A stretch of 64,000 bases of DNA. Source: a bacterium (GTDB lineage Bacteria; Electryoneota; JAOADG01). Positions 14,951 to 57,841 of the stretch are shown here, one piece after another; positions within the stretch are counted from its first letter, which is position 1, and each line of letters begins with the position of its first letter. Made by a program: the position numbers and the translations under genes. The stretch lies in NCBI GenBank assembly GCA_963681965.1, contig OY820579.1, positions 4,096,001 to 4,160,000 on the forward strand, read 5' to 3'. The notes below the pieces were generated by a model, which saw only the letters and a program-made list of their open reading frames with translations, did not search any database and had not been told where the DNA came from.

Positions 14951-15817
14951 GTGAAGATCGTCGTCGACGATCACGCCGGATTTTGTGGTGGCGTGAAGCG
15001 TGTAGTTCGATTGGCGGAACAATCGCTGGAAAATGGCGAGCAGATTCGATCGCTCGGTGATTTGATTCACAACGATTCCGAAATCAATCGACTGAAACAA
15101 CGCGGGCTCGAGATTGTCGATCATGAGATTTTCAATCGCAAAGAACATGGCGGCGTATTGTTGATCCGCGCACATGGCGAACCTCCCTCCACTTTTCAGA
15201 CCGCTGAAGACCAGCACATGACCCTCATCGACGGCACCTGTCCGGTGGTGACCAAATCGCAAAAAATCGCTCGCGAAGCCTATTTGCGCGGCGAACAAGT
15301 CGTCATTGTCGGTAAGAAATTTCATGCCGAAGTGAAAGGCATCATCGGTCACTGCGATAATCAAGCCTTCGCCATCATGCATGAAGCGGACATCGACGAA
15401 TTGCCGTTGACAAAAGATCGACCGGTCTTCGTATTGGCGCAAACAACGATTTCACCCGAAGAATTTCAAGCGGGCGTCGAATGGATTCGCAAACGCGGTT
15501 TCGAAGTTCACGTTCACGATACACTCTGTCGCTTCGTAACCGGTCGCGATAAAGATCTGGAAAAATTCGCCGCCGCTTACGATGTCATCTTAATCGTCGG
15601 CGGTCACAAATCGTCGAATACGAAATATCTTCACTCCGTTTGTCGCGAAAAAAATCCCAACAGCTACCATATCGAAGACGATTCGGAAATCGACTACCAT
15701 TGGTTCGACGGCAAAACCAGTGTAGGCGTTACCGGCAGCGCCAGTACGCCACCGTGGATGCTGGAACAGGTCCGGAACGTACTCGAAACGAAATTGAACA
15801 TGAACGTTGCCGAATAG
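14951..15817 (+). CDS. ispH: 4-hydroxy-3-methylbut-2-enyl diphosphate reductase
   Basis: Motifs AGFCGGVKR, IRAHG, DGTCPVV, HAEV, QTT, TLC, SSNT and SASTP, including the three Fe-S Cys. Confidence 0.96.
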   Translation: MKIVVDDHAGFCGGVKRVVRLAEQSLENGEQIRSLGDLIHNDSEINRLKQRGLEIVDHEIFNRKEHGGVLLIRAHGEPPSTFQTAEDQHMTLIDGTCPVVTKSQKIAREAYLRGEQVVIVGKKFHAEVKGIIGHCDNQAFAIMHEADIDELPLTKDRPVFVLAQTTISPEEFQAGVEWIRKRGFEVHVHDTLCRFVTGRDKDLEKFAAAYDVILIVGGHKSSNTKYLHSVCREKNPNSYHIEDDSEIDYHWFDGKTSVGVTGSASTPPWMLEQVRNVLETKLNMNVAE

Positions 15818-15890
15818 CATGTAGGACGAATTCTCGAACAATTCCACAAAATTTTCGTAATACTACTCTAGTATACCCTCAATAGGATTA

Positions 15891-42222: not shown

Positions 42223-45144
42223 TTATTCGCTGCGGTTTTGCTGCTGATATTTATAGTCTTTATTGTCCTCTTTGTAATAACCGGGGTAGAGTTTTTTCAT
42301 ACACTCGGGACAAATGCTATGAGAAAATTGCGCATCCGACCGCTCGGTGATATAGTGTTCGACTTGCAACCAATATCCTTTGTCGTCGCGAACGTGCTTG
42401 CAATTCGCGCAGATCGGAATTAGACCACTCAATACTTTGACATTTTCCAAAGCATCGGATAACTCTTTCGTGCGCGTCGCCACCCGCTCTTCCAACTTCG
42501 CATTGGCGCGTTTGACGGCTAGCAATCGAACAGTATAGATCAATACAATCACACCAATCACTATGACCGCTACCATCAATTTGAAGAGCATCGTTTCGTG
42601 ATAATATGCCGGCACGTTGATCGTGATGGTTTTCTTGAGATCCTGCTTCTTACCAAAAATATTGGTAGCTTTCAATTGAAAGGTATAGGTTCCCGGTGGA
42701 ATCTGATGGATGTTGACTTCATTCACCTTGGTCAGAAGCGAAAAACTGTCGCTCAATCCATCCAATTTCCACGAATAGCGATTGTTATGCTCGCTTACGA
42801 AATCCAACGATGCATAACGGATCTTAAGCGACCGTTGACCCCGCGGCAAATCGATCGAGGAGTGAATCGGATGCGAAGTATTGTTCGACCAAATCCCCGT
42901 TACCGCTACCGGTTTAGTATTGGTTCCAGAATTCCACAGTGTATTTAAATCGATAATGACGATATTGTTCGATTGGAGTAGTAAATAGCGATCGGGATCG
43001 ATTTCAATGATCCGTTTTACATTGTCTTCATCGAGACCGAATTGTCGATCGATCATATAATTCGACGTGGAATTGGCAAACAGTAACCCTTCCGATGTAG
43101 CATACAAGCGGTTTCCGTGCCGATCGAAAAATAGATCCTGATAACTGCATTTCTGATCCGATAACTCTTCCGGTCGCGAGATTCCGGAGCGATCGATTTT
43201 AACCACCCCTTCGCTTGCCAGAAAATAGAGATTACCCGATCCATCGGCGACGCACCGACTGATCGCACCGACATTGCCAACTTTCTTTAAGTCGCAATCG
43301 GTCAGTGAATCACCTTCCAATCGCATGAGCGATCCGGTGAAGGTGCCAAGATAGTAGCGCGAATCGAATGCATACCCGCCACACATCGCGATGTTGTCGC
43401 GCAACCGGTTCGCTATCGGCAGGTAGAGCAAAGTGTGATCGAAATCCCGCATATCCCATTGCACAAAATCTGCCGTACCGTAGCGATATAAATTATGATC
43501 TACCAAGCGGTAGCTGTGATTCCAATTGCCGAAAAAAGTTGTATTGTCGGGACCGGTGTAGGCGAAGTTGCAATACAACATCGCTTTTTCCCAATCCTTA
43601 TTGTAGATCAGTTTATCGCCCGTCCATTGGCAAATAAACCAACCGCAGTTAATCCACAACTTACCACTGCGATCCAATGAGAATACCGCTTTCTCACCGC
43701 CGGTATAAATATGACTCGCGAGTATTTTTACATTATTGTCGTGAATCAGGAACAGCGAAGAATCGGATAGCAGTACGATATCCTGATTTTTATCCAGCGC
43801 CAGACCTCGAATAATTTCTTCGCTGTTCAGTCGGATCGGTAGATCTGTCAGTTTCCCGCGGGAATAGCGGACCAATTTATTTTCGCAGGCGATATAGACG
43901 TCGCCATTGCGGTGTTTCACCGCTTCGACGGTTTCCTTAATAGCAGGAATTGTTTGCCGATTGTATTTCCTGATGCTGCTCGTGACCAGTTTTTGCAGAA
44001 TGCCTTCTTTGGTAGTAATCCAATAGATTCCCTGATCGTCGCGAAGACAATTGATTACGTCGTCGGAAACTAAACCGGTTGCTGCCGAGAACCGCAGCGT
44101 ATCGTTCGTGCGCAGAATCGTCAGACCATCGTTGTTGCCGACAACCTGCTCGGTTCCGAATAATTGAAAAAATGTCGTGGGTTTATCGAATGGGTCGACC
44201 GGTTTACATTTATGTAGCTCGTCGCCGATGATTTGGTAAACACCGTCGCGAGCATGGACCCATACATTTCCTTGATTATCGCGCAGGATTTTGTTAATGA
44301 ACCACCCCTTGGAATAAGCAGGTGCGATCCAAAATTTACTATTGGCAAGAAAGAAACTCTTACTGCGATCATTCGAATTAAATGTAAAACAGGTCGAATC
44401 GATCGTTTGTGCCGAATGATATACAAAACCGAGATGTATTCCGGGATATTTTTTTTGAAATTCCGCTTCCGGTAATCCTTCAAAATCTTTTAATAACGCT
44501 TTATCTTTCAGCTCCCACAGCGCCAGCAGCGTACTCAGTTTTACCCGATAAATTCCATCCATTTCGGATGCCAGCCAAAACGTCTCGGAAGTAGGATCGT
44601 AGGTAAAGTCGACCAGATAATTCGTCTGAAGATAAGTAGTATTGAAATTCCGCCAGATCCAAGCATAGAAGCCTTCGCCACGCTTCATGATCAGACCGGC
44701 AGATGTCGCGTAAAACGACATCCCCTTGATAAATTGCACATTCTTCACAACCAGATTGTGCAATGTCGGATCAACAGTGATTTTTCCAGTCTCCGGATCG
44801 TACACTGAAATCCCACTCCAGCTACAAATCCAGAGCTTACCATCAGGGGCTTCCACTATTTTGTAAGTATGGTTGTTCGAGAGCCCATCGCTCACGGAGA
44901 ATCGTTGGAATTCGTAACCGTCGTAACGCACAATTCCGCGCGATCCGGCAAACCAAAGGAAACCCCGGCTGTCTTGCATACTACCATTCACTTCGCCAAT
45001 ATCCGGGAAGTGGACATCGTCGTAAGTGTAGAACGCGTATTGTTGGGCTTGTGAACAGTGGGGAGAGAACAAAACCGCCAGACTGAGAATCAGTATGGAG
45101 AGCAGAGGAATTCGATTAATTACCGATCTCAAGTAATCGTTCAT
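42223..45144 (-). CDS. Periplasmic beta-propeller/Y_Y_Y sensor with a C-terminal Cys-rich domain and no histidine kinase
   Basis: QDSRGFLWF, YDGYEF, DGLSNN (Reg_prop repeats); YSWKLDG..PGTYTFQLKA (Y_Y_Y); TM; LEERVATRTKEL; LIPICANCK..RDDKGYW...FSHSICPEC. Confidence 0.88.
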   Translation of the reverse strand: MNDYLRSVINRIPLLSILILSLAVLFSPHCSQAQQYAFYTYDDVHFPDIGEVNGSMQDSRGFLWFAGSRGIVRYDGYEFQRFSVSDGLSNNHTYKIVEAPDGKLWICSWSGISVYDPETGKITVDPTLHNLVVKNVQFIKGMSFYATSAGLIMKRGEGFYAWIWRNFNTTYLQTNYLVDFTYDPTSETFWLASEMDGIYRVKLSTLLALWELKDKALLKDFEGLPEAEFQKKYPGIHLGFVYHSAQTIDSTCFTFNSNDRSKSFFLANSKFWIAPAYSKGWFINKILRDNQGNVWVHARDGVYQIIGDELHKCKPVDPFDKPTTFFQLFGTEQVVGNNDGLTILRTNDTLRFSAATGLVSDDVINCLRDDQGIYWITTKEGILQKLVTSSIRKYNRQTIPAIKETVEAVKHRNGDVYIACENKLVRYSRGKLTDLPIRLNSEEIIRGLALDKNQDIVLLSDSSLFLIHDNNVKILASHIYTGGEKAVFSLDRSGKLWINCGWFICQWTGDKLIYNKDWEKAMLYCNFAYTGPDNTTFFGNWNHSYRLVDHNLYRYGTADFVQWDMRDFDHTLLYLPIANRLRDNIAMCGGYAFDSRYYLGTFTGSLMRLEGDSLTDCDLKKVGNVGAISRCVADGSGNLYFLASEGVVKIDRSGISRPEELSDQKCSYQDLFFDRHGNRLYATSEGLLFANSTSNYMIDRQFGLDEDNVKRIIEIDPDRYLLLQSNNIVIIDLNTLWNSGTNTKPVAVTGIWSNNTSHPIHSSIDLPRGQRSLKIRYASLDFVSEHNNRYSWKLDGLSDSFSLLTKVNEVNIHQIPPGTYTFQLKATNIFGKKQDLKKTITINVPAYYHETMLFKLMVAVIVIGVIVLIYTVRLLAVKRANAKLEERVATRTKELSDALENVKVLSGLIPICANCKHVRDDKGYWLQVEHYITERSDAQFSHSICPECMKKLYPGYYKEDNKDYKYQQQNRSE

Positions 45145-45541
45145 CACTATTCGAAAGTTAGTTGTACCGAGCTGGCACTGTTCTTTTATATCGGCACTTT
45201 CCTGTAAATCATTATCAACTAAGTTGAGACGTATTGGTCTTGGCTGAAACCCCAAACATGACTGAGAAAACACTCTTTCAGTCTAATTATCAATATCGTA
45301 TCGTTGATTTCGGCAAGCAAATCGGAATTATGTCTATTACCAACTTCAGTACTATCGAAATCCGAACCTGTAACACGGTTATAATCTCGATTCTGGGCTA
45401 TTCGCCGAATCTCAGCATAACCCTATTCTAGCGAAAAAATCACAATTTATCTCATTTCCTATTGATTATCCCCCCACTCCGGTGTATCCTGTATGTTACA
45501 TTCAATTTTCAGTGCAATTTAAAAAAAATTAAGGAGAATCC

Positions 45542-46288
45542 ATGGCGATAGATCTGGAAAAAATCCTACGACCAGTCGATACGCCCCTGCCACCTTTTCC
45601 GGCGAAATACATGACGCTTGCCGGTGGCGAGCAATTAGTAATCCGTCAAGTCTCCCGCGATGAAATTCCCGAGATTCTACCCCATGTCGAACCGCTGATC
45701 CATGTCGAGCGCGACTATTACGACATCGTTGCAGCACGGGTCTATGCCGAACTGCTGAGTTACTACACCTACCGGGTGCAGGATGAGTACGTTTTGGCGG
45801 CGCAGATCGATGGCGAGTTGGTCGCAGTGGTCAACGGTCGGATCGTGAACAAAGATGTCGGCATGTCCTTCCATACCCTTGCACTCCGGCGCGGTTTGCG
45901 CGTAGGCGCTCACGCCTTTGCGGCGAAGATGGAATATCACATCGATGTGCTTGGGCAAAAGGAAGTACTGATTGTTGCCGAATCGCCGATCGGTTTCCGG
46001 CGCTGGATGATCGAATATAAGTTGGAAAAACGCTTTGAAATTCCTCACGAATTGGGCGGTTGTCCATCGTGGGCACTCACCAAAGAGCTGTTCGATAAAG
46101 CGCGCGACAGTTTGATTGTCGGTCGTCGACCGGTCCCGGAAGCGTTGCTGGTGAAAGCGCATGCCGCCATCCTGCCGCCGACCGATCCACCGCGACCTCC
46201 GGTCGACCTGCTCGCCGCAACGCGCTCACTCTACGATTCCACCGGAACTGCGCTGCTCGAGCAGCGAAAACATCTGGGAGGAAACTAA
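45542..46288 (+). CDS. Hypothetical protein, possibly GNAT fold; first gene of the catabolic cluster
   Basis: Strong aggag RBS; 1 bp gap to the thiolase start; LVIRQV...VLAAQIDGELVAV...RRGLRVG resembles GNAT strand order and motif A. Confidence 0.6.
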   Translation: MAIDLEKILRPVDTPLPPFPAKYMTLAGGEQLVIRQVSRDEIPEILPHVEPLIHVERDYYDIVAARVYAELLSYYTYRVQDEYVLAAQIDGELVAVVNGRIVNKDVGMSFHTLALRRGLRVGAHAFAAKMEYHIDVLGQKEVLIVAESPIGFRRWMIEYKLEKRFEIPHELGGCPSWALTKELFDKARDSLIVGRRPVPEALLVKAHAAILPPTDPPRPPVDLLAATRSLYDSTGTALLEQRKHLGGN

Positions 46289-46289
46289 T

Positions 46290-47465
46290 ATGCGCGATGT
46301 CTATGTAGCGGGAATCGGCATTACCAGTTTCACCCGGCTCGAGTATCCGTTGGTGGAAATTGCCGCCTATCCCGGATTGATGGCGATGAAAGAGAGCGGT
46401 ATCAAATCGATCGACCAACTCTATGTCGCCAACATGGGTGCTGCCCGGGTCAATCACCAGACCAGTCTTGCCAGTGCCGTCGTCGACAATCTGAGTTTGA
46501 CACCCGCCGGTGCAGTATCGGTTGAAAATGGTCCGGCATCCGGCGCTTCGGCAATCATGCAGGGTTTTCTCGCCGTCGCTTCGGGTGTGTACGATACCGT
46601 TATGGTCATCGGCGCCGAACGGATGCGCGAAGTGAACAATCTGGAAGCCACCGACTTCGTCGCGACACTCACTCACCCGATGGCGGAATACATCTACGGA
46701 ATCACACTCCCGTCGCTGGCGGGCATGTTCGCCCGGTTGTATATGGAAAAATACGGCGTTACCTCGCGACATCTCGCGATGGTCGCAGTAAAGAATCACA
46801 AACATGCGATGGACAATTTCTTTGCGCATCTGCACGAAGAGATAACGCTCGAAGGGATCCTCGATTCCCCAGACGCATCGACCAACAACCCGATCGTAGC
46901 CGACCCGTTGCGGTATTACGATATGTGCCCGGTATCCGATGGCGGTGCGTGCTTGATCTTGACTTCTGCCGATATCGCAAAGAAGACCGGCAAACCGATT
47001 GTGCGCCTCGCGGGTATCGGTCAGGCTACCGACACTCATGCCGTACACGACCGGAAGGATCCGACCGATCTGTTGGCGGTGCGGTTGGCAGCGCAAAAAT
47101 CGTTTGCAATGGCACAATTGACGCCGAAAGATGTCCATGTCGCCGAACTCCACGACGCATTCACGATTCTGGAAATTGCCGAAAGTGAAGAAGTCGGTTT
47201 CTTCGAACGCGGTCAGGGTCATATTGCGTTGCAGGAAGGATACACCAAAATCGGTGGTAAACTACCGATCAATCCATCCGGCGGTCTGAAGGCGAAGGGT
47301 CACCCGGTCGGCGCAACCGGCGTCGGACAGGCACACGAGATCGTGTTGCAGTTACGCGGCGAAGCCGCAAAACGGCAAGTGAAAGGGGCGAAAGTCGGTT
47401 TCACCTGCAATTTCGGCGGGTTCGGCAATAACGTCGTCTGTTTGACTTTTGTGCGGGAGGAGTGA
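46290..47465 (+). CDS. Thiolase-fold protein (SCP2/archaeal type) lacking the nucleophilic Cys
   Basis: VAVKNH, PVSDGGA, ELHDAF and INPSGGL.AKGHPVGATG; reads ENGPASG where ENACASG is expected. Start at MRDVYVAG after ggagg. Confidence 0.9.
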   Translation: MRDVYVAGIGITSFTRLEYPLVEIAAYPGLMAMKESGIKSIDQLYVANMGAARVNHQTSLASAVVDNLSLTPAGAVSVENGPASGASAIMQGFLAVASGVYDTVMVIGAERMREVNNLEATDFVATLTHPMAEYIYGITLPSLAGMFARLYMEKYGVTSRHLAMVAVKNHKHAMDNFFAHLHEEITLEGILDSPDASTNNPIVADPLRYYDMCPVSDGGACLILTSADIAKKTGKPIVRLAGIGQATDTHAVHDRKDPTDLLAVRLAAQKSFAMAQLTPKDVHVAELHDAFTILEIAESEEVGFFERGQGHIALQEGYTKIGGKLPINPSGGLKAKGHPVGATGVGQAHEIVLQLRGEAAKRQVKGAKVGFTCNFGGFGNNVVCLTFVREE

Positions 47466-47815
47466 TCGTGGAAATGAATATTTATGCCTACAAGTGCAAG
47501 CGCTGCGGTCACGTGCAATACCCTTACCGTACGATCTGCCGCAATTGTCACGAAAACGACCACAACGAATTCGATATCGTACCGTTGCCGAAGTCCGGGA
47601 AGTTGGTGACCTACACGCATCTATACAATCCCCCTTCGGACTATGCGATTGTCTGCCTGACACTGGGCATCGTCGAACTCGAAGATGGCAACAAAATCAC
47701 TGGACAACTCAACATCAAAAATCCGCGAACCGGAATGCCGGTGACCGGAAAAGTGGAAGTGGTCCGCAAAGACGAATACAACAAATATTACGGGATGGTT
47801 TTCTACGAAGCCTGA
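47462..47815 (+). CDS. DUF35 Zn-ribbon/OB-fold protein
   Basis: KCKRCG..YPYRTICRNC, GKLVTYT and GIVELEDG..ITGQL; overlaps the thiolase stop codon. Confidence 0.92.
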   Translation: MIVEMNIYAYKCKRCGHVQYPYRTICRNCHENDHNEFDIVPLPKSGKLVTYTHLYNPPSDYAIVCLTLGIVELEDGNKITGQLNIKNPRTGMPVTGKVEVVRKDEYNKYYGMVFYEA

Positions 47816-47879
47816 TCCCGACATACCGGATCAAGTAGCAATTCGCTCCCCGTTATCGAATGCGACCGACGGGGAGCAG

Positions 47880-48719
47880 TTGCCACAATTGCGAAGCTAC
47901 GGCGACGCGATTCGACGCGGTCACTTTCGCGTACACAGCCGGTTTGAGCATGTCGTCAATTTTCTCGATGGTGAGAATCTGGTATCGATTGTCGATCACT
48001 CTGTCGGTGCAGGTCCGACATCGATCATTCTCGATCGATTTACTCCAACCGAATGGTCTGCGCTGGCGATTTACTCCAATCGAATGCTACTCGATCGAAT
48101 GCGAATCGATCTCAACCCGGCGAATCAATATCAATCGCGAATCGCTTTTCCTCAGACGATCGAACAAATTCTGGTGATCGACAATATCGCTTCCCTGCAT
48201 GAACTTGTCGTGAGGCAAGCAACACCGGATAATTTGGCATTCCTGCTTTCCGACGATGAGGATATCGGAACCGATTTATCCTTCAAGGCGCAACTAAGAA
48301 CTCGGTTTTTTACCGCCAAAGCTCAGTTGGCAGCCGGGCAAATCGAAGCGGGCATCTCGCTCATCAAGGGCGTTGGTGTCGGATTGACACCGAGTGGCGA
48401 CGACTTTATCGCCGGAGCGATGGTCGCATTGCATTTACGGCAGCACTTATTTCCGATATCATTAACACAATTGATCGATCAAATTTATCAACGGTCGCAT
48501 TCGACCAATCCGATTGTAGCCACCATGCTGCGACAGGCACACGACGGTCGCGTGAATGAAAAATGGCAGCGTCTGATTACGGCGTTGACCGGTAATGAAC
48601 TGGATCGAATCAAACCACTCGCGCTAGACGTGCTTGCGACCGGCGCTACGTCCGGCGTCGATATGATGGTAGGTTTTCTCTTTGGCTTGACCAATTTCCG
48701 GTGTACACATGACAACTAA
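47880..48719 (+). CDS. DUF2877 (YlbF/AllH/YahE-like) protein
   Basis: VHSRFEHVVN, GVGVGLTPSGDDFIAG, TNPI and GATSGVDM..G. Confidence 0.85.
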   Translation: MPQLRSYGDAIRRGHFRVHSRFEHVVNFLDGENLVSIVDHSVGAGPTSIILDRFTPTEWSALAIYSNRMLLDRMRIDLNPANQYQSRIAFPQTIEQILVIDNIASLHELVVRQATPDNLAFLLSDDEDIGTDLSFKAQLRTRFFTAKAQLAAGQIEAGISLIKGVGVGLTPSGDDFIAGAMVALHLRQHLFPISLTQLIDQIYQRSHSTNPIVATMLRQAHDGRVNEKWQRLITALTGNELDRIKPLALDVLATGATSGVDMMVGFLFGLTNFRCTHDN

Positions 48720-50244
48720 CGGTCTTATCGTGCGCGGTGAATATTTCGATTCCGTCACGCTGATGATGGCGGCGAAGCGCGTCAATGAATTACCCGGTGT
48801 GATCGATAGTGCAATCGTGATGGGTACTGCCGAGAACAAAGCGATTTTAGCGGCATCGGGATTATTGATCGCGTCATTCGCAACGGCTACCGATGCCGAT
48901 TTGTTAATCGCGGCAAAAACCGACGATCCGGCTCGTGCCGAAACAATTCTTCCCGAAATCCGGGAATTATTGAAAACAATTCGGAAACGGGGAACATCCG
49001 GCAGCAAATCGTTACCGCGTACGCTCGATTCGGCAATCAAGCTATTACCGGATGCCAATCTCTGCATGATTTCGGTGGCGGGTCGTTTTGCCGGCGATGT
49101 CGCGATGAATGCATTGCAACACAATTTGCACGTGATGCTGTTCTCGGATAATGTCAGTGTCGAGCGGGAAATTGAATTGAAGCGCTTTGCGCGCGAACAC
49201 GGTTTGCTGCTGATGGGACCCGACTGCGGTACCGCGATTATCAACGGTGTTCCACTCGCGTTTGCGAATGTCGTTCAGCCGGGTGATATCGGTTGTGTCG
49301 CGGCAGCAGGAACGGGACTGCAGGAAGTCACGAGTCTCGTTTCGAATCTCGGCGGCGGTATCTCGCAAGCGATCGGCACCGGTGGTCGCGATGTCAAGCA
49401 AGCCGTCGGCGGAATTATGTTCCTCGAAACGATCCGCCTGCTGGCAGCAGATCCTGCCACAAAAGTCATCGTGCTGATTTCTAAACCGCCGCATCCCGAC
49501 GTTCTGAACAAGATTTTCGAACTTTGTATATCGATTACGAAACCGATTATCGCTTCGTTCCTCGGTGTCGATCCAGAAATCATTCGAGCTGCTGGTATGA
49601 TTCCGGCGCAATCCCTCGCCGCTGCCGCTCGTCGCGTAGTTGCATCGAGTAATCCGGAATTCGCTCCATCGGAATCGTCTGTGATCAATCCCAAAAAAGC
49701 ACCCGTCGAATTCACTGCGCAACAAAAATTTGTTCGTGGATTATTCAGTGGTGGCACTTTCTGTTACGAAGCGCAGTTGCTGTTGCACGATCTAACCGGT
49801 GCGATCTATTCGAATGCTCCAACTGGACGTTCGATCGCACTGGAAAATGTATTAGTAAGCCGCGAACACACGATCATCGATCTCGGTGAAGATGAATTCA
49901 CTGTCGGTCGACCGCACCCGATGATCGATTTTTCACTCCGCAACAAGCGGATTATTCAAGAAGCCGACGACCCTGAAACAGCGGTCATTCTGCTCGATCT
50001 GGTACTTGGCTATGGCGCGAACCGCGATCCACTTACCGACCTGCTACCGGCAATCCGGCAGGCGCAAGCCGTAGCAAAAGATCATTCTCGGAATTTACCC
50101 ATCGTCACTTCGGTGACGGGTACCGATAGCGATCCGCAGTGTCGTTCGACAGTGGTGGAAGGGCTCCGCAGCGCTGGAGTGATTGTTGCGGAATCGAATG
50201 CGGCAGCGTGCGAAATCGTAAAATCACTGCTCGGAATTCACTGA
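48709..50244 (+). CDS. fdrA: FdrA (AllF/YahF-like) succinyl-CoA-ligase-fold protein
   Basis: YFDSVTLM, MGTAENK, MLFSDNV, MGPDCGTAII, IGTGGRD, GLFSGGT, DLGEDEFTVGRPHPMID and LDLVLGYGA. Confidence 0.92.
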   Translation: MTTNGLIVRGEYFDSVTLMMAAKRVNELPGVIDSAIVMGTAENKAILAASGLLIASFATATDADLLIAAKTDDPARAETILPEIRELLKTIRKRGTSGSKSLPRTLDSAIKLLPDANLCMISVAGRFAGDVAMNALQHNLHVMLFSDNVSVEREIELKRFAREHGLLLMGPDCGTAIINGVPLAFANVVQPGDIGCVAAAGTGLQEVTSLVSNLGGGISQAIGTGGRDVKQAVGGIMFLETIRLLAADPATKVIVLISKPPHPDVLNKIFELCISITKPIIASFLGVDPEIIRAAGMIPAQSLAAAARRVVASSNPEFAPSESSVINPKKAPVEFTAQQKFVRGLFSGGTFCYEAQLLLHDLTGAIYSNAPTGRSIALENVLVSREHTIIDLGEDEFTVGRPHPMIDFSLRNKRIIQEADDPETAVILLDLVLGYGANRDPLTDLLPAIRQAQAVAKDHSRNLPIVTSVTGTDSDPQCRSTVVEGLRSAGVIVAESNAAACEIVKSLLGIH

Positions 50245-50286
50245 ATTGTTCCAAAGAAAATACATGTATCGAGGAAATAGCCAATC

Positions 50287-51690
50287 ATGAGCAATTTATT
50301 CGATCAAAAATTAAATGTGATTAATGTCGGTCTGGAATCGTTTAAGACGACACTCGATGAATCGGGAACGCCCGCAGTGCAGATGGATTGGCGTCCACCA
50401 CTGGCGGTGAGTACGGCTGCTCGCGATGCGATCACCGCTCATCGCACCGAAATCGACCAAGCGAATCGCGAGACGGTCGACCGCATCATCGCCGGAAAAC
50501 CATATTGGATTGGCTTGGGTCACGCGCTTGAATGTATCCCCGGCATGCACCCGAAATTGATTCTGCACGCCGGACCACCGATCACCTGGGAGCGGATGTG
50601 CGGACCGATGCGCGGCGCGATCATCGGCGCGTTGTTGTATGAAGGACTCGCCGCGGACGAAGTCACAGCCGAACAGATGGCGGCATCCGGCGAAATCGAA
50701 TACGCCCCGTGTCATGAACACGCCACAGTCGGTCCAATGGCGGGAATCGTGTCGGCGTCGATGCCGGTCTCGGTGGTGTTCAATGCCACGTTTGGCAATT
50801 ATGCCTACACCACACTGAATGAAGGTCTTGGTAAAGTATTGCGCTACGGTGCCTACAGCCCAGAAGTACTGACCCGCTTAAAGTGGATGGAACGCGTGTT
50901 GTTTCCGGTGCTGCAGGCTGCCGTCGCCCATGCCGAGAAAATCGATCTCAAAGCGATCATAGCCCAAGCGCTGCACATGGGCGATGAAGTGCACAACCGC
51001 AATCGCGCGGCGACCTCGCTGCTCTACCGTACATTGGCAACACATATCGTGCGTACTGCCGAGGATTACGAAACCGCTGCGAAAGTACTCGACTTCATCA
51101 ACGGTAACGATCATTTCTTCCTGAATCTTTCCATGGCATCCGGGAAAGCATGTCTCGATGCTGCGCGCGATATTCCCAATAGCAGCGTCGCCATCGTGAT
51201 GGCACGCAATGGTACCGACTTCGGGATCCAACTATCCGGCACGGGAAATCGCTGGTTCACCGGTCCTGCGCCGGTTCCCGATGCACTCTTCTTTCCCGGA
51301 TTCACGAAAGCCGATGCCAATCCCGACATCGGCGACAGCGCTATCACCGAAACGTATGGTCTCGGCGGTTTCGCGATCGCAGCATCACCCGCGATCGTGC
51401 AATTCGTCGGCGGTCAAGCCAGCGACGCGCTGCAATACACTTTGAAGATGTACGACATCACGACAGCGGAGAATCCCGGATTCCAAATTCCCGCGCTCGA
51501 TTTCCGCGGTACGCCGATCGGGATCGATGTCCGTAAAGTTGTCGATACCGGCATTCTCCCGTTTATCGATACGGGCGTCGCACACAAAAAACCCGGCATC
51601 GGTCAAGTTGGAGCAGGAGTGTTATCAGCACCGCCGGAACCGTTTATCAACGCCTTTGAAGGTTTTTCCGAACAATACCGAAACGCATAA
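50287..51690 (+). CDS. DUF1116 (YlbE/AllG/YahG-like) protein
   Basis: LHAGPPI, PCHEH..VGPMAG, MGDEVHNRN, NDHFFLN, ARNG, PDIGDSAITE and GQVGAG. Confidence 0.92.
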   Translation: MSNLFDQKLNVINVGLESFKTTLDESGTPAVQMDWRPPLAVSTAARDAITAHRTEIDQANRETVDRIIAGKPYWIGLGHALECIPGMHPKLILHAGPPITWERMCGPMRGAIIGALLYEGLAADEVTAEQMAASGEIEYAPCHEHATVGPMAGIVSASMPVSVVFNATFGNYAYTTLNEGLGKVLRYGAYSPEVLTRLKWMERVLFPVLQAAVAHAEKIDLKAIIAQALHMGDEVHNRNRAATSLLYRTLATHIVRTAEDYETAAKVLDFINGNDHFFLNLSMASGKACLDAARDIPNSSVAIVMARNGTDFGIQLSGTGNRWFTGPAPVPDALFFPGFTKADANPDIGDSAITETYGLGGFAIAASPAIVQFVGGQASDALQYTLKMYDITTAENPGFQIPALDFRGTPIGIDVRKVVDTGILPFIDTGVAHKKPGIGQVGAGVLSAPPEPFINAFEGFSEQYRNA

Positions 51691-51728
51691 CGAACGAATA
51701 CAATCAATCGAAAATGAAGGAGCAGAGC

Positions 51729-52541
51729 ATGAAGACTGAAGAATTTCTGGCATTCATGGGCAAATTGAAGCTCTACGATTTAACCCAGCGACTTTCGATC
51801 CACACCCCCCCGTGGCCGAGTTACATGCCGCTCGGGATCCAGTATTTCAAGCGCATCGCTGGCGCACACATGGGTCAGGGCGCCAATGGTCAAATCATCA
51901 CGACCAGCAATCATGTCGGTACCCATATCGATGGCGAGATTCATTTTCACGCGAGCGGTCGTGCGATCGGTCAGGTTCCGATGACGGAGTGGGTTGGTGA
52001 TGGCGTGATTGTCGATATTTCTAAAGAGGTCGAGGATTACGGTCTCTATTCGCCGGATTTATTGATGAGCAAAGCCGAAATCAAGAAGGGCGACATTCTG
52101 ATCATCAATACCGGCTATCACAAGTATGCCTGGGATCAACCCGGTTCCGACGAAATCCGCTACTTCGTGAAGCATCCCGGACCCGATCCGGAATTTCACA
52201 AGTGGGCGCTAAAAATGAAATTCAAGTGGATCGGCGTCGATTGCGGCAGCGCCGACCATCCGATGAACACAATCATTCGCAACTGGCATCCGAAACCGTT
52301 CATCGAAGCCGAGAAGAAATTGAAGAAGCAGTACGGCAAGGATTGGGATGAATTCTTCCCACCGGAAATTTATTATCAGGTAATGCACCTAAAATTGTTC
52401 CCGAAGAAATTGGTGCATGCCGAAAATCTCGGTGGTGAAATCGACAAACTCTCCAACAAACGCGCGTGGATCGGTCTGTTCCCGTTGCGCGGTATCGAGC
52501 TGGAATCGTCGATGTGCCGGATTGTCGCAATGCTTCCCTGA
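51729..52541 (+). CDS. Cyclase-family metal-dependent amidohydrolase (kynurenine formamidase/isatin hydrolase fold)
   Basis: YDLTQ, metal motif HVGTHIDGEIHF, KKGDILIINTG, GVDCGSADHP and HAENL. Confidence 0.88.
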   Translation: MKTEEFLAFMGKLKLYDLTQRLSIHTPPWPSYMPLGIQYFKRIAGAHMGQGANGQIITTSNHVGTHIDGEIHFHASGRAIGQVPMTEWVGDGVIVDISKEVEDYGLYSPDLLMSKAEIKKGDILIINTGYHKYAWDQPGSDEIRYFVKHPGPDPEFHKWALKMKFKWIGVDCGSADHPMNTIIRNWHPKPFIEAEKKLKKQYGKDWDEFFPPEIYYQVMHLKLFPKKLVHAENLGGEIDKLSNKRAWIGLFPLRGIELESSMCRIVAMLP

Positions 52542-52611
52542 TCGGTGTTGGGGATTGGTGCTTGGTGCGAGGAAAAGAAGTCGGGTGCATTGAGGATGAA
52601 CTACTTTTTTG

Positions 52612-52708
52612 GTAGGGGCGGTTCGCGAACCGCCTGTATCTAGTGGATAATTACTTGCGAAATTTTGCAGGCTCTTTCGGCAGAAGGGGCGGACCCCCGT
52701 GTCCGCCC
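52612..52708. repeat. Two REP palindromes within the catabolic cluster
   Basis: GTAGGGGCGGTTCGCGAACCGCC at 52612 and GAAGGGGCGGACCCCCGTGTCCGCCC at 52683. Confidence 0.8.
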
Positions 52709-52831
52709 GCAGATATTTTTTACTAGTACCGGTACTCTTGTCTGTACACGTTGTGCAGCGCCGATCATAGCATCCTGACAATAATAGATTTATTACAGTT
52801 TGACCGATACAAGCGTTAATGAGGAGTCGTC

Positions 52832-53719
52832 ATGGCGATCCTGCATGAATTCGACTACCACCGCCCGGAAACGGTGTCGGCGGCAGTCAAACTACTGACC
52901 AAATTCAAACATCCGATGTTGCTGGCAGGCGGCACCGATCTGATCAATGAATTGAAAGCGGAAGTCATCCACCCGGATGGAGTCATCGATCTCAAAGCAA
53001 TTCCCGAACTGCACGACATTACATTTTCGAATGGCGTCTTGACAATCGGTGCGGCTGTGACTTTTGCCGAATTGATCGAATCGCGGATCATTCAAACGAA
53101 ATTCCCGGTGATTGCGGAAGTCGCGCGAACCGTCGGTTCCACCGGTGTTCGCAATCGCGCCACCATGATCGGGAATATCTGTTCCGCCGTTCCCTGTGCC
53201 GACAGCGCCCCGTTGCTCACCGCCTATGAAGCGCACGTGTTGGTGCGCAGCCTCCGATCGAAACGAAAAATTCCGATCGCCTCGTGGTTCATCGGCAATC
53301 GCAAAACCGCCATCAAACCGGGTGAGATCGTTACTGCGGTGGAAATCGCATTGCCTGCCCGCAATCATGCCGGTTGCTTTGTGAAGTTGGGTCGCTACTC
53401 CGGTGAAGATCTGGCGCAAGCGAGTGTGATTATACTCGCGCTACCGAAACGCCAATATCGCATCGCGTTTGGTTCGGTCGGGATTACGCCAATTCGCGCC
53501 GAGCGGCTGGAAAAGCTGTTGAACGGGCATCTTCCATCGGACGAGCGTATTGCTGAAGCCAAAGCCATCATTCCGGAAATTGTCAAACCGATCTCCGATA
53601 TCCGTGCCTCGAAAGAGTACCGGTTACATATGTGTCAGGTAATGTTTGCGCGCGGAATCGAAGCCGCCGTCGCACGCCTGAATGGTAACGGTTCCGAATA
53701 CGGTTCGAAGTTGATCTAG
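52832..53719 (+). CDS. Xanthine dehydrogenase-family FAD-binding (medium) subunit
   Basis: FDYHRP, LAGGTDL, VRNRATMIGNI and PISDIRAS.EYR. Confidence 0.94.
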   Translation: MAILHEFDYHRPETVSAAVKLLTKFKHPMLLAGGTDLINELKAEVIHPDGVIDLKAIPELHDITFSNGVLTIGAAVTFAELIESRIIQTKFPVIAEVARTVGSTGVRNRATMIGNICSAVPCADSAPLLTAYEAHVLVRSLRSKRKIPIASWFIGNRKTAIKPGEIVTAVEIALPARNHAGCFVKLGRYSGEDLAQASVIILALPKRQYRIAFGSVGITPIRAERLEKLLNGHLPSDERIAEAKAIIPEIVKPISDIRASKEYRLHMCQVMFARGIEAAVARLNGNGSEYGSKLI

Positions 53720-53733
53720 GAGAGCGTGTCGCC

Positions 53734-54243
53734 ATGAACAATAAAACAGCATTTATCCTGAATGGTCAATCCGTGGAAATCGCGGTGGAACCGCATGAAA
53801 TCCTACTCGACGTGTTGCGCTACAAGCTCGGTGTGAAAAGTCCGAAATGCGGCTGCGATCGCGGCGATTGCGGGTCGTGTACCGTCATGATCGACGGTCG
53901 CACCGTCCGCAGTTGCATGGTGCTTGCGATCGAAATTGCCGGGCAGCGTGTCACGACCCTCGAAGGCTTGATGGCAGGCGGCGAGCTGACCAATCTGCAA
54001 CAGGCATTCCTGAAACATAATTCGTTTCAGTGTGGCTACTGCGCACCCGGAATGATTCTCTCCGCGACCGAATTGCTTGCGAAAAATCCTCATCCCGACA
54101 AGACCGAAATCAATCAAGCGATCGCGGGTAACCTCTGTCGCTGTACCGGATATCATCCGATCACCGATGCAATCGTCGAAGTCGCGAACGAAGCACCTCC
54201 GCCACCGAAAATTGCCAAAGCTGCGAAAGGAGGTCGGCGATGA
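53734..54243 (+). CDS. Xanthine dehydrogenase-family 2x[2Fe-2S] (small) subunit
   Basis: GCDRGDCGSCTV...SC, QCGYCAPG and GNLCRCTGY. Confidence 0.95.
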   Translation: MNNKTAFILNGQSVEIAVEPHEILLDVLRYKLGVKSPKCGCDRGDCGSCTVMIDGRTVRSCMVLAIEIAGQRVTTLEGLMAGGELTNLQQAFLKHNSFQCGYCAPGMILSATELLAKNPHPDKTEINQAIAGNLCRCTGYHPITDAIVEVANEAPPPPKIAKAAKGGRR

Positions 54244-56585
54244 GTGAACTCAATTTTGTCGGTCACGATGCCATTCGAGTGGATGGAAAAGTCAAAGTCA
54301 CCGGTGCCGCACAATTCGTCGACGATCTCGAATTCGGTCCCGGATTGTTGTTTGCCGAAATCATCGAGAGTCCCCACGCACATGCATTGATCAAAAAAAT
54401 CGATACCCGTGCGGCGGAAAAAGTGCCGGGTGTCGTGAAGATCGTCACTGGCGCCAATTTTCCGTATCGCTTCGGGTTGTATATGCACGACCGGTATATC
54501 TTTGCGCAGGATCGTGTCCGGTTCGTCGGCGAGCAAGTCGCCGCAGTGATCGCGCGCGATGTCGTGACGGCGAAGCGCGCCGCGAAACTGGTGAAAGTGA
54601 CCTATCGGGAACTCCCGCCGATCCTCGATGTCGCAACCGCAATGTCGCCTGATGCCTTGTTGATCCATCCCGAATTGAAAGGATACCACCACGTCCCGTG
54701 GTTCTTCCCGCAAGCGGACAGCAATATTGCGCACTGGCGCAAAGTCCGGAAAGGGGATACCGACGCAGGGATGCGCGAAGCCGATTTTATCTTCGAAGAT
54801 ACTTACACCGTTCCACGATATGCGCATTGCGCCATCGAGACTCATGGTGCCGTCGGACAATTCGATTTGTCGGGACGATTGACTGTCTGGTCGGCATCTC
54901 AATCGCCGTTCACTCAGCGCAATCTCTTTGCCGAAGCGCTTGCACCGTTGGGCATTACGCATAGCGATGTGCGGGTAATCGCACCGTATGTTGGTGGTGG
55001 ATTTGGCGGTAAAGCCGGAGTGTCGATGGAGATTCTCGCGGCAGCATTGGCAACTGCCGTACAGGGAAATCCGGTGAAAGTGCTCTGGTCGCGCGAACAG
55101 GAATTTTACAACACCTATCAGCGGCAAGGGGTGACGGCGAAAACCAAAATCGGTGTGAAGCGCGACGGTACGATCACTGCGCTGGAACAGACGTTGTATT
55201 GGGATGCCGGCGCGTATGTCGAATATGGCGCGAATGTCGTGAATGCCGCCGGTCTCTCTGCTACCGGACCATACCGCATTCCGCATGTCAAAATCGATTC
55301 GTATTGCGTCTATACCAATCTCCCGCCGGGTGGTCCGTACCGCGGCTTCGGCTATTCCGAATTCCTGTTCGGTCTCGAATCGCACATCAACGAAACCGCG
55401 AAAGCGCTCGGCATCGATCCAGTCGAGTTCCGGCGGATCAACGCGATTCAGGCGGGCGACACGCTAACCTACGGTGCGAAAATGAATCCAAGCGGGATGA
55501 AAGAGTGTATCGATAAAGCGGCAGCAGCAATCGAATGGGGCACGCCATCGCTTCCATCCGACAACCCGAATATCTTGAAAGGGAAAGGCTTCGCCTGCTT
55601 CTGGAAAGCACCGGCAATGCCGCCGAATGCGGCTTCGACCGCATTCATCAAATTCAATGAAGATGCCAGTCTGAATATTCTGGTATCTGCGATGGAGATC
55701 GGACAAGGCTTCCTGACAGTGATGGCGCAAATTGCCGCGGAGGTTTTAACAATTCCGGTCGAAAAGATTCGCGTTGAATTGCCGGACACCGATCGCAATC
55801 CGTACGAATGGCAAACCGTCGCCTCGCATATCACGTGGGGTACCGGCAATGCCGTCAAGAAGGCGGCGGAGGATTGCCGTGAGCAAATCTTTGCCGTGGT
55901 CGAACGCGCACTCGGCAAGTCGCACGAGGATTTATTTCTCGTGAATGAGGAAGTACATTCTCACAAAGATCTGGAATTCATCCTTCCGTTACGGAATTTC
56001 GTGATCAACGGGATCATGATGCCTGACGGCACCTTTCGCGGCGGTCCGATCATGGGACGTGGCACCTTCATGCCGGAATTTGCCTCGGCGCAATCCGATC
56101 CCGAGACCAGTCAAGGCAGCAAACCGAATGTTCATTACACCGTCGGTGCTGCTGCCGTTGAAGTCGAAATCGATCGTGAAAGCGGGAGTGTCCGCATTCC
56201 CCGGGTCGCGCTCGCAGTCGATGTCGGCAAGGCGATCAATCCCGGTCTGGTGAAGGATCAGGTGATCGGTGGATTAATGCAGGGGATCGCGACGGTGCTC
56301 TATGAAGACATGCGGTTCGATGCAAAGGGACGAATGCTGAACGACAACTTCACCGACTATAAAATTCCGACGGCACTCGATGTTCCCGACGAAGTGATTC
56401 CGATTATCGTCGAAGTCGCGCAACCGGACGGTCCCTATGGCGCTCGCGGGATGGGTGAACATACGATGATTCCAGCCGCGCCGATGATTGCGAATGCGAT
56501 CGAGAATGCGACCGGTATTCGAATCAAAGCGATGCCGATCACTGCCGAAAAAATCGCACTGGCAATCAAGAATCGCGGAGCGTAA
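54240..56585 (+). CDS. Xanthine dehydrogenase-family molybdopterin-binding (large) subunit
   Basis: KVTGAAQFVDD, GGGFGGK, YRGFG, EIGQG, DYKIPT and GARGMGE (catalytic Glu). Confidence 0.95.
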   Translation: MSELNFVGHDAIRVDGKVKVTGAAQFVDDLEFGPGLLFAEIIESPHAHALIKKIDTRAAEKVPGVVKIVTGANFPYRFGLYMHDRYIFAQDRVRFVGEQVAAVIARDVVTAKRAAKLVKVTYRELPPILDVATAMSPDALLIHPELKGYHHVPWFFPQADSNIAHWRKVRKGDTDAGMREADFIFEDTYTVPRYAHCAIETHGAVGQFDLSGRLTVWSASQSPFTQRNLFAEALAPLGITHSDVRVIAPYVGGGFGGKAGVSMEILAAALATAVQGNPVKVLWSREQEFYNTYQRQGVTAKTKIGVKRDGTITALEQTLYWDAGAYVEYGANVVNAAGLSATGPYRIPHVKIDSYCVYTNLPPGGPYRGFGYSEFLFGLESHINETAKALGIDPVEFRRINAIQAGDTLTYGAKMNPSGMKECIDKAAAAIEWGTPSLPSDNPNILKGKGFACFWKAPAMPPNAASTAFIKFNEDASLNILVSAMEIGQGFLTVMAQIAAEVLTIPVEKIRVELPDTDRNPYEWQTVASHITWGTGNAVKKAAEDCREQIFAVVERALGKSHEDLFLVNEEVHSHKDLEFILPLRNFVINGIMMPDGTFRGGPIMGRGTFMPEFASAQSDPETSQGSKPNVHYTVGAAAVEVEIDRESGSVRIPRVALAVDVGKAINPGLVKDQVIGGLMQGIATVLYEDMRFDAKGRMLNDNFTDYKIPTALDVPDEVIPIIVEVAQPDGPYGARGMGEHTMIPAAPMIANAIENATGIRIKAMPITAEKIALAIKNRGA

Positions 56586-56626
56586 CAAATCATTTATCGG
56601 TGAATATCGTATCAATGAAACGTTTG

Positions 56627-56650
56627 AAACCCGCCTTATTGGCGGGTTTT
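56627..56650. terminator. Terminator after the molybdoenzyme genes
   Basis: aaacccgcc-ttatt-ggcgggtttt between convergent genes. Confidence 0.75.
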
Positions 56651-56695
56651 GGCGTTATACACAGTTTTGAATGGATGGCGATTCGAATCTTCTGT

Positions 56696-57841
56696 TTATT
56701 CACCCAACAGTCGTTCGTACAGTGCAAACAGCTTTTCCTCTTCCGGTTCCCAACGAATATTCTTGCGCACCCATTCCCGAGCAGCCGCTCCTGCTCGCAC
56801 GCGCTCCCGTTCGTCCGACAGCACGGCAGCGATCGTATCGGCAATCGCAGTGGCATCTTCGGGAATGTAATAGACGCCGGGCAGATCGTTCGGCAGCACG
56901 TCCGCCAACGCTGCCAGTTTCGTGGTAATCACCGGTACGCCCCAACCGAGGTAGTAGAAGATTTTTTGCGGAATATTGAACCGGTAGCGATCAACCATCG
57001 TCGGCATCACTGCCAATTTCGCCATTGCCATTAAATCGTAATTCTCGTCGAGTGAAACATAACCGCGATGCTCGACCAATTCTTCGATACCGCGCGAAAT
57101 CAACGCTCGATCCCAGGGCAACAATTCCGGATCGGTCGGCGGTGTGCCGGTAAAAATCATTCGTGTCGGTCTACCGCGATCCTTTAACATTTTCAGAGCA
57201 TCGAGGATCAATGTCCCGCCGCGATCTTGTGTCAAAATACCGCCGTAATGCAGTTCCGGATGATTGCTCGGACGTTCCGGAATCGCGCGGTCCAATTCGA
57301 ATTGAAAGGGGAAATTCAACAACGGCTGTACCGGTTTGATCCGTTTATCGAGATAATAGCGTGCCGTCGGATTGTCGCTTGTCAACGTTGCATCGACTTG
57401 GTGCACCAGAAACGGAATGATATCGTTGGAAAACCACTGAAAGAATGGTTGCTTGAAGGTGCCCTGAGCATAATCGGCATATCGCGCGGCATCCGGATAG
57501 AATTCGTACGAATCGAAGATCGATGCGACATGTCGACGTTTGGCAATTTCAATCAAGATCGGCAATTGTTCGGGTGAATTGATCTGAATCGCGTCGGGCG
57601 GATCTGCCAGCATTTTGCGGCGATAAATTTTCATTCGCTCGTAACGTTCGCGAAACGATTGTCCCCCGGGATACCCGAAGATCTCGATTCCATCGACAAT
57701 TTTGTGATCGAATTTCGCGCGCGCGTGGATCTCGACCCGGTATTTTTTGGCGAGAGAGCGCGCAATACGCCACATCCGGACGTAATCCCACTGCGTGATG
57801 GTCGCTAGATGTACAATTCGTTTCATTGGAATAGTGATCAA
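56696..57841 (-). CDS. Glycosyltransferase, GT-B fold (family 4-like)
   Basis: LHYGGILTQDRG, HRGYVS, PQKIFYYLGWGVPVI (variant of P.K.FEY) and W..EEEKL..LY. Confidence 0.8.
   Translation of the reverse strand: MITIPMKRIVHLATITQWDYVRMWRIARSLAKKYRVEIHARAKFDHKIVDGIEIFGYPGGQSFRERYERMKIYRRKMLADPPDAIQINSPEQLPILIEIAKRRHVASIFDSYEFYPDAARYADYAQGTFKQPFFQWFSNDIIPFLVHQVDATLTSDNPTARYYLDKRIKPVQPLLNFPFQFELDRAIPERPSNHPELHYGGILTQDRGGTLILDALKMLKDRGRPTRMIFTGTPPTDPELLPWDRALISRGIEELVEHRGYVSLDENYDLMAMAKLAVMPTMVDRYRFNIPQKIFYYLGWGVPVITTKLAALADVLPNDLPGVYYIPEDATAIADTIAAVLSDERERVRAGAAAREWVRKNIRWEPEEEKLFALYERLLGE

Follow-up and report, generated by a model that had tools for sequence, protein, structure and literature searches.

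A proline-bearing thiolase-fold protein with a DUF35 partner in a candidate operon for oxidative pyrimidine breakdown

Main

To date, the only known thiolase-fold enzymes that have no nucleophilic cysteine and pair with a DUF35 protein are two steroid side-chain aldolases, Ltp2-ChsH2 and Sal-Shy, which cleave C–C bonds without thiolysis (PMC12329534). Here we analyse another protein of this make-up, encoded in a 64,000-nt stretch of a genome from the bacterial phylum Electryoneota (GenBank assembly GCA_963681965.1, contig OY820579.1, positions 4,096,001 to 4,160,000 of the forward strand; the whole stretch is called the window, and its first letter is position 1). We use the name ThlP for this thiolase-fold protein, which is encoded at window 46290-47465. 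With the genes for a GNAT-fold protein and a DUF35 protein it forms a trio that heads a ten-gene cluster. We propose, at a probability of roughly 45%, that ThlP is the catalytic subunit of this trio within an operon for oxidative uracil and thymine breakdown via barbiturate, where it would turn a malonyl-type unit into acetyl-coenzyme A (acetyl-CoA) by a non-thiolytic reaction. The main texts of the literature searched, few of them from subscription journals, contained no description of the trio or the operon, and public records label the ThlP family ‘acetyl-CoA acetyltransferase’.

By sequence and by fold, the nearest described proteins are the thiolases of PDB entries 6esq and 7yvy, which share with ThlP the HDxF and GHx motifs and an adjacent small DUF35 gene. 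They carry the nucleophilic cysteine (EAACASG) where ThlP has proline, however, and the third partner in their assembly of three proteins, where the next enzyme pulls an unfavourable step along (PMC12329534), is a thiolase-superfamily HMG-CoA synthase (HMGS) of the mevalonate route, whereas the third partner here is a GNAT-fold protein in what appears to be a catabolic pathway. ST0096 of Sulfolobus tokodaii (PDB 4YZO) resembles ThlP in having no nucleophile cysteine, its D-N-T-S-G-S-G aligning with the E-N-G-P-A-S-G of ThlP, but has serine rather than proline and an HDMT-type rather than an HDAF motif; it is a thiolase-like protein with no function assigned, and is only named in PMC6392133. 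The steroid aldolases match ThlP in the Cys-less fold and the DUF35 partner and differ from it in their catalytic residues (Tyr294/Tyr344 in Ltp2 and Tyr302/Cys304 in Sal (PMC12329534), where ThlP has His288 and Ala290), in a lower structural similarity (Z 48) and in gene context. The SCP2-thiolase-like protein of Trypanosoma brucei, TbSLP (PDB 5AB4-5AB7), is a Cys-less thiolase fold that binds malonyl-CoA, as the title of 5ab7 states, but it has a YDCF motif, neither a DUF35 nor a GNAT partner, and an unassigned physiological role. The Friedel–Crafts acyltransferases PhlABC and MucABC are three-subunit DUF35 assemblies with one thiolase-superfamily subunit that has lost its catalytic residues (PMC6392133, PMC12960953). 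In these assemblies the thiolase-type subunit (PhlC, MucB) keeps its cysteine and is acetylated, the dead subunit is HMGS-like, and the HDxF histidine that ThlP keeps is absent.

Results

The ThlP frame is part of an open reading frame at 46161-47465, is read from the ATG at 46290 and holds no stop codon. This start matches the orthologues, which begin with the same MR[DE]VY. A previous reading of the letters by a model without database searches (the sequence-only reading) had noted E-N-G-P-A-S-G at 46524-46544, HDAF, an intact GHPVGATG and an undamaged frame, and the DNA and its translation bear out every one of these. The features concerned are as follows.

46290..47465, + strand: ThlP, a 391-residue thiolase-fold protein with Pro82 replacing the nucleophilic Cys
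46524..46544, + strand: E-N-G-P-A-S-G, the former nucleophile elbow, residues 79-85 of ThlP; Pro82 is CCG at 46533-46535
47151..47162, + strand: H-D-A-F, residues 288-291 of ThlP; the His is kept and the Cys of SCP2-type HDCF is replaced by Ala290
47298..47321, + strand: G-H-P-V-G-A-T-G, residues 337-344 of ThlP, with the second active-site histidine (H338)
47406..47420, + strand: C-N-F-G-G, residues 373-377 of ThlP; by BLASTP, Cys373 falls where classical thiolases have their acid/base cysteine

The seven codons of the elbow (gaa aat ggt ccg gca tcc ggc) give E79-N-G-P82-A-S-G85, and because CCG differs from the cysteine codons TGT and TGC at all three positions, a single-base error cannot account for Pro82. 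A sequencing error or private mutation was rejected as its origin, given this codon distance and the fixed proline in relatives described below. In PhlC, two main-chain NH groups, that of the cysteine and that of Gly385, make up the oxyanion hole for the acetyl-cysteine (PMC6392133). Since proline has no NH, Pro82 takes away the thiol and half of the acyl oxyanion hole, and thiolysis and Claisen condensation via a covalent intermediate are therefore excluded.

Pfam finds Thiolase_N (E 9e-23) and Thiolase_C_1 (E 1e-41) in ThlP. No NCBIfam thiolase cut-off is reached: all 25 listed models stay below their own cut-offs, the best being the archaeal-type PRK06064 with 391.8 bits against 420. The best solved relatives by sequence are 7yvy (E 2e-71), 4yzo (E 2.7e-71) and 6esq (E 3e-63); Pro82 aligns with the Cys of 7yvy and 6esq and with the Ser of 4yzo, and the residue is Cys in three solved thiolases overall. 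The window's genome has one classical thiolase (L081), with the motifs VNKVCSSG, NEAF, GHPIGSSG and CNGGG, and BLASTP places P82 on the nucleophilic Cys of VNKVCSSG, HDAF on NEAF, GHP on GHP and C373NFGG on CNGGG. The HDCF-type acid/base Cys position is Ala290 in ThlP, and the classical CxG position is, by the BLASTP alignment only, Cys373. Judged by its residues, ThlP looks like a thiolase active site from which the nucleophile alone is missing.

The AlphaFold model of ThlP, with a predicted local distance difference test (pLDDT) score of 88.5 and a predicted template modelling (pTM) score of 0.91, retains an elbow of strand, turn and helix in which Pro82 follows strand 74-78 and precedes helix 84-98. 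Its closest solved chain is 6esq_A (Z 57.2, root-mean-square deviation (rmsd) 1.9 Å, 381 residues aligned), followed by 7yvy (56.4), BbsB (54.1), PhlC and 4yzo (52.9 each); scores are lower for TbSLP (48.9), Ltp2 (48.5, 6ok1_C), Sal (48.4, 9myr_A) and classical thiolases (~41). The predicted structure is nearest to the DUF35-bound thiolases. The sole low-confidence stretch of the model (pLDDT <50), residues 128-137 at window 46671-46700, holds the invariant H129, E133, Y136 and G137 and may be ordered only with a partner or substrate.

Conservation was followed in the closest clusters (the best 120 of 8000 scored hits, 78-92% identical to ThlP), in a 64-row alignment of the window protein and 63 orthologues from genome contigs of many phyla, and among wider relatives, for which representatives at 50% identity were searched exhaustively with HMMER, yielding 130 full-length rows with the query counted in. 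ENGPASG is found in all 120 closest clusters listed and in all 64 aligned orthologues. The motif, raised in the sequence-only reading as a possible subfamily signature, is thus conserved as one, and none of these close homologues carries Cys in place of the proline. Among the same 120, HDAF is present in 119, GHP[VL]GATG in 120 and CNFGG in 119, and the 64 rows are invariant at E79-G85, H288-D-A-F-T292, G337, H338 and C373. Orthologue record titles name Ignavibacteria, KSB1, Zixibacteria, Elusimicrobia, Verrucomicrobiota, Planctomycetota, Acidobacteriota, Myxococcota, Acidimicrobiia and others, and identity to ThlP is 72-92% across these more than ten phyla.

Among the 130 wider rows, the nucleophile position is Cys in 81, Ser in 18, Pro in 9, Asp in 9, Gly in 6 and other residues in the rest. 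A quick maximum-likelihood tree was built from 83 rows: 8 orthologues were added to the first 75 of the 130-row set, whose remaining 55 representatives were not used. The tight ThlP family (support 100) sits within a 26-row clade (Shimodaira–Hasegawa-like approximate likelihood ratio test 99) that has only Pro (16) or Ser (10) at this position and Cys in none; P0165, a cluster representative with the DNTSGSG motif of ST0096, falls in the same clade. Members of the clade are only 40-60% identical to the window's ThlP. In the 18 clade rows examined, H288, D289, G337 and H338 are each present 18/18, position 290 is Ala (14) or Met (4), and position 373 varies, with 8 H, 4 C and 3 V among the rows. 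Both SCP2-type cysteines were therefore lost long ago, with the two histidines kept throughout, and on this alignment their survival in so divergent a clade is not what would be expected of a decaying pseudoenzyme.

Cys373 is variable in the wider clade yet invariant in the window's family and is therefore special to that family; only 2% of the 81 Cys-bearing relatives have Cys there. It belongs to a set of residues that are family-invariant but rare (at most 10%) in those 81 relatives, among others G81, H129, A144, R160, H161, an inserted T198-N-N200, H311, N380 and N381, and from these the pocket seems to have been remodelled. The sequence-only reading had offered the cysteines of YDMCP or TCNFGG as possible substitutes for the nucleophile. 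YDMCP finds no support: the motif is present in only 38 of the 120 closest clusters listed, the family consensus there being FDCCP, and C213, which is invariant in 64/64 orthologues, occupies a position that is Cys in 38 and Ser in 35 of the 81 Cys-bearing relatives and so is nothing particular to the family. For TCNFGG the suggestion stands in part, in that C373 is invariant and aligns with the CxG cysteine, which makes an acid/base role plausible but not a nucleophilic one.

Relatives of the Ser type (ETASSTG/HDAF) have varying neighbours, including enoyl-CoA hydratase and ADP-forming CoA-ligase-like genes. One of them (L096:4989-6512) is fused to a DUF35 OB domain (508 residues; OB_ChsH2_C 34.3 bits), and another (L091:4872-6427) adjoins a separate zinc-ribbon gene instead. 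A metagenome scan with the Pro-type relative P0124 gave 29 loci, in which the motif holders were mostly of this Ser type and in a few cases of a Cys type (ENYCSSG/HDCF); tblastn found no GNAT-fold relative near any of the 29.

ThlP is flanked by the two other genes of the trio.

45542..46288, + strand: GNAT-fold protein, first trio gene, 248 residues; its stop codon TAA lies 1 nt before the ThlP ATG
47462..47815, + strand: DUF35 protein (zinc ribbon and OB fold); zf-ChsH2 26.7 bits (cut-off 23.2), OB_ChsH2_C 26.0 bits (just under the cut-off of 27.1)

The DUF35 gene adjoins ThlP and passes the zf-ChsH2 cut-off, which upholds the pairing proposed from sequence. Its likely start, judged from orthologues, is the GTG at 47468, giving 115 residues that begin MEMNIY (115-117 in the family), and the four zinc-ribbon cysteines are invariant in 63/63 aligned sequences.

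The GNAT-fold protein has no Pfam family even at E 10, no NCBIfam match and no PDB sequence match; it has 2569 relatives at E<=0.001, named ‘hypothetical protein’ in public records, and its orthologues in 60 loci are 70-88% identical. All 50 best VIA-align rows of its AlphaFold model (pLDDT 81.2, pTM 0.78) are GNATs, at Z 8.4-11.7 over model residues 17-193, with 1yre_A at Z 11.7 (rmsd 3.5 Å, 159 residues aligned). At E<=0.001, Foldseek listed 34 matches; acetyltransferases were also what a language-model search suggested. The predicted fold is that of a GNAT, an acyl-CoA acyltransferase. GNATs bind the acyl-CoA pyrophosphate through a Q/R-x-x-G-x-G/A motif, which the invariant stretch R117-G-L-R-V-G-A123 fits only in part. 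The protein ends in a conserved Pro-rich tail (ILPP..PP..DLLAATR..D.T; residues 195-248, window 46124-46285), modelled at pLDDT 54-58 over residues 221-240, which could be a docking arm.

The full trio was detected in 70 of 80 related loci; in nine of the other ten a contig end truncates the locus, and in the tenth (L073) ThlP is frameshifted. The genes are tightly packed: 64 of 65 loci have a junction of -8 to +12 nt from the GNAT-fold gene to ThlP, and 67 of 69 have one of -4 to +7 nt from ThlP to DUF35. This linkage and the fusion of a Ser-type relative to an OB_ChsH2_C domain are indirect evidence that the three proteins may form a physical complex. A search for longer proteins gave three matches and no true GNAT-ThlP fusion; P0391 and P0392 were rejected as fusions, their long out-of-frame stretches being read-through artefacts.

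The main clue to function is the pathway context, which was absent from the sequence-only reading. Downstream of the trio lie the following genes.

47880..48719, + strand: AllH-like protein (DUF2877); PF11392, E 4e-24
48709..50244, + strand: FdrA/AllF-like protein with succinyl-CoA-synthetase-type domains; NF004760 499.9 bits (cut-off 433), Pfam CoA_binding and Ligase_CoA
50287..51690, + strand: AllG-like protein (DUF1116); PF06545, E 5e-97
51714..52541, + strand: cyclase-family (PF04199) metal hydrolase, a candidate ring-opening amidohydrolase; Pfam, with weak PDB matches to kynurenine formamidases
52832..56585, + strand: xanthine-dehydrogenase-family molybdenum hydroxylase in three genes; FAD subunit 52832-53719, 2Fe-2S subunit 53734-54243, molybdenum subunit 54240-56585

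Escherichia coli AllFGH phosphorolyses the acyl-urea oxalurate, giving oxamate plus carbamoyl phosphate, and is characteristic of urease-negative bacteria in which carbamate kinase is also present (PMC11326118). This oxamate carbamoyltransferase is comparable to the neighbouring genes only. All three of its subunit families are present in the operon, which differs in having no allantoin pathway context, no adjacent carbamate kinase and a divergent AllH-like subunit (26-38% identical between loci); the substrate would presumably be ureidomalonate rather than oxalurate. A carbamate-kinase-like gene lies far from the operon in the window's genome (G000:C1:3261549-3262472; 346.7 bits, just under the cut-off of 358), and the genome has no urease alpha subunit (best 20 bits), which together match the urease-negative pattern described for AllFGH. 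The molybdenum enzyme is of the CoxMSL type. Its molybdenum subunit has as closest solved chain the alpha subunit of 4-hydroxybenzoyl-CoA reductase (1rm6, E 2e-105) and scores below every NCBIfam equivalog cut-off, and its FAD subunit matches the 4-hydroxybenzoyl-CoA reductase beta model over residues 1-120 only.

In one locus (L072), an AtzD/TrzD-family protein stands in place of the cyclase, with 533.9 bits to the solved barbiturase 5hwe against ~310 to cyanuric acid hydrolases. Orthologues of it in L074, L076 and L078 bring the number of such actinobacterial loci to four.

L072:615-1709, L074:11599-12687, L078:585-1679: barbiturase orthologues, by similarity to 5hwe

The cyclase is present in 37 loci, the barbiturase in 4, and both in none. 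No barbiturase is encoded in the window, where the cyclase-family hydrolase fills the corresponding place in the gene set. The replacement probably points the operon to uracil/thymine breakdown via barbiturate and, if it is real, barbiturate ring opening may be the unrecognised activity of the cyclase-family protein. For the oxidative pyrimidine pathway, only barbiturase appears as a cloned, structurally solved enzyme in the literature searched.

All ten genes are present in 29 of the 80 loci, and at least one cluster gene from outside the trio in 58. An AllG orthologue (64-68% identical) is encoded elsewhere in 4 of the 5 genomes in which the trio stands alone. Within the window's phylum, the GNAT-fold gene is present in 3 of 79 genomes, and AllG orthologues of at least 73% identity are found in the same 3. 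Another genome of the phylum, G052, has a 55% AllG homologue without the GNAT-fold gene. Patchy presence combined with 70-90% identity across more than ten phyla suggests horizontal transfer of the cluster.

Discussion

Our proposal for ThlP builds on the observed residue pattern, conservation, gene linkage and barbiturase replacement; its substrate, step order, complex and chemistry would be as follows. The molybdenum hydroxylase would oxidise the pyrimidine to barbiturate, and the cyclase-family hydrolase (the barbiturase in the actinobacterial version) would open the ring to give ureidomalonate. The AllFGH-like enzyme would then use phosphate to cleave ureidomalonate into carbamoyl phosphate and a malonyl-type C3 amide, as AllFGH does with oxalurate, and the trio would turn the C3 unit into acetyl-CoA. 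Within the trio, the GNAT-fold subunit would transfer the malonyl group from nitrogen to the CoA thiol. ThlP would hold the malonyl thioester with its carbonyl polarised between His288 and His338 and cleave the C2–C3 bond without an acyl-enzyme, the leaving group most likely being CO2 and otherwise of carbamate type, and Cys373 would protonate the resulting acetyl-thioester enolate. A thiolase C89A variant and KSQ/CLF domains reportedly have malonyl-CoA decarboxylase activity. Cys-less TbSLP decarboxylates malonyl-CoA slowly (PMC12329534), and thiolysis by a DUF35-type thiolase requires the HDxF His (PMC12960953). The sequence-only reading had proposed some non-thiolase chemistry, by an aldolase, decarboxylase or hydrolase. 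Such chemistry is the most reasonable reading of ThlP, with the reservation that the aldolase version fails the residue tests and that decarboxylase or hydrolase action is putative.

A more specific version, which is speculative and in our view doubtful, is that the trio channels its substrate. The GNAT reaction would be reversed, moving malonyl from malonamate or ureidomalonate to CoA, with the uphill step pulled by decarboxylation in the ThlP pocket, so that C4-C5-C6 of uracil would be saved as acetyl-CoA without ATP. If so, uracil would, with the carbamoyl phosphate from the AllFGH-like enzyme, be a fermentable, ATP-yielding substrate. The molybdenum hydroxylase takes its oxygen from water, and the uracil route could thus run without O2. 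An O2-free, ATP-yielding route of this kind could, if true, explain the spread of the cluster through more than ten mostly uncultured phyla.

Several observations weigh against the proposed pathway. GNAT enzymes normally run from thioester to amide, and the reverse needs a thermodynamic pull, which is here postulated. The 50 structural neighbours listed for the GNAT-fold model do not include malonyl-CoA decarboxylase, an absence that is itself uninformative, and what ties the GNAT-fold protein to ThlP/DUF35 is gene order. Cys373 is not kept in the wider Pro/Ser clade, so the proton donor proposal holds for the ThlP family only. The window has a cyclase-family hydrolase and not a barbiturase, the uracil assignment being carried over from the four actinobacterial loci. 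For the molybdenum subunit, nearest to 4-hydroxybenzoyl-CoA reductase and under all equivalog cut-offs, family membership is all that was seen.

The alternative that survives best, though we think it improbable, is that ThlP/DUF35 is a non-catalytic scaffold, a dead thiolase that holds the GNAT-fold or AllFGH-like enzyme active as PhlA and MucA do in PhlABC and MucABC. The SCP2-type catalytic pair has lost its two cysteines (P82, and A290 in HDAF), and there is precedent: PhlABC needs PhlA for activity even though this subunit has neither the Cys nor the Glu (PMC6392133), the HMGS-like units in bacterial complexes lack activity (PMC12960953), and pairs of thiolase and DUF35 serve as hubs to which other enzymes are recruited (bioRxiv 10.1101/2024.07.05.601840). 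A scaffold is hard to reconcile, however, with H288, D289 and H338 being kept 18/18 in a clade only 40-60% identical to ThlP, or with a C373 that is invariant in 64/64 orthologues against 2% Cys in the Cys-bearing relatives. Identity of 72-92% over more than ten phyla would also be unusually high for a scaffold alone, and the chemistry of PhlABC and MucABC is carried out by a second, Cys-bearing thiolase-fold subunit, of which this cluster has none.

Somewhat less probable still is that the trio is an enzyme of the operon but that some heterocycle besides uracil and thymine is what the operon breaks down, or that the trio acts elsewhere, for example on an aryl-CoA-type intermediate of the molybdenum enzyme, so that its substrate is not of malonyl type. 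The best solved relative of the molybdenum subunit (E 2e-105) does act on a CoA thioester, the subunit passes no equivalog cut-off, and the window's ring-opening candidate is only weakly similar to kynurenine formamidases. The pathway is nevertheless tied to barbiturate by the barbiturase orthologue that occupies this gene neighbourhood in four loci, never together with the cyclase; an acyl-urea intermediate would suit the AllFGH-like genes, and the resemblance of the FAD subunit to 4-hydroxybenzoyl-CoA reductase beta is limited to residues 1-120.

We consider it very unlikely that ThlP acts as an Ltp2/Sal-type retro-aldolase on a 3-hydroxyacyl-CoA. It shares with Ltp2-ChsH2 and Sal-Shy (PMC12329534) the Cys-less fold and the DUF35 partner, and structural similarity is high (6ok1_C Z 48.5, 9myr_A Z 48.4), but the model is clearly nearer to true thiolases (Z 56-57) and the cluster has no hydratase or MaoC gene. 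The sequence-only reading was right to set ThlP apart from Ltp2 by its two His motifs: the catalytic Tyr at the first position of YDHF/YDCY is His in the xDxF motif of ThlP, H338 is kept, and the position of the essential Cys304 of Sal is Ala. Least credible of all is a ThlP that still works as a thiolase with C213 or C373 as acyl acceptor, for although both are family-invariant, C373 aligns with the acid/base cysteine and not the nucleophile, the C213 position is already Cys or Ser in 73 of the 81 Cys-bearing relatives and so provides no replacement, the proline also abolishes the NH of the acyl oxyanion hole, and ThlP scores under the NCBIfam thiolase cut-offs.

If the proposed pathway is correct, ThlP would add to the Cys-less, DUF35-associated enzymes a second and mechanistically different type, marked by an elbow proline, retention of both histidines and a third subunit of GNAT fold, and the last steps of the oxidative pyrimidine pathway would be filled. 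As the family is large and very strongly conserved, its annotation as a thiolase would mislead metabolic reconstructions of many uncultured lineages.

Other features of the loci

A promoter and terminator scan of 45200-56800 gave fewer sites than shuffled sequences and is uninformative. In some Bacteroidota loci, IS200-type transposase and restriction-modification genes are inserted between cluster genes, and the flanking pathway genes are kept.

L022:16210-16641, L023:13969-14400, L023:10827-12367 and 15500-16408: inserted genes, IS200-type transposase or restriction-modification

The insertions in L001, L014, L022 and L023 were considered as extra pathway genes and rejected, being IS200, restriction-modification, PD-(D/E)XK or radical-SAM genes.

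Divergent from the operon, window 42223-45273 (- strand) encodes a 1016-residue Reg_prop and Y_Y_Y protein, for which tblastn gave no match of at least half its length in the 80 related loci. Rather than in a kinase domain, the protein terminates in a short tail rich in Cys and His (C-x2-C ... H ... C-x2-C). At 58151-60280 and 60293-62533 (- strand) lie genes for two large BNR/Ycf48-like repeat proteins with Por_Secre_tail (type IX secretion) sorting domains.

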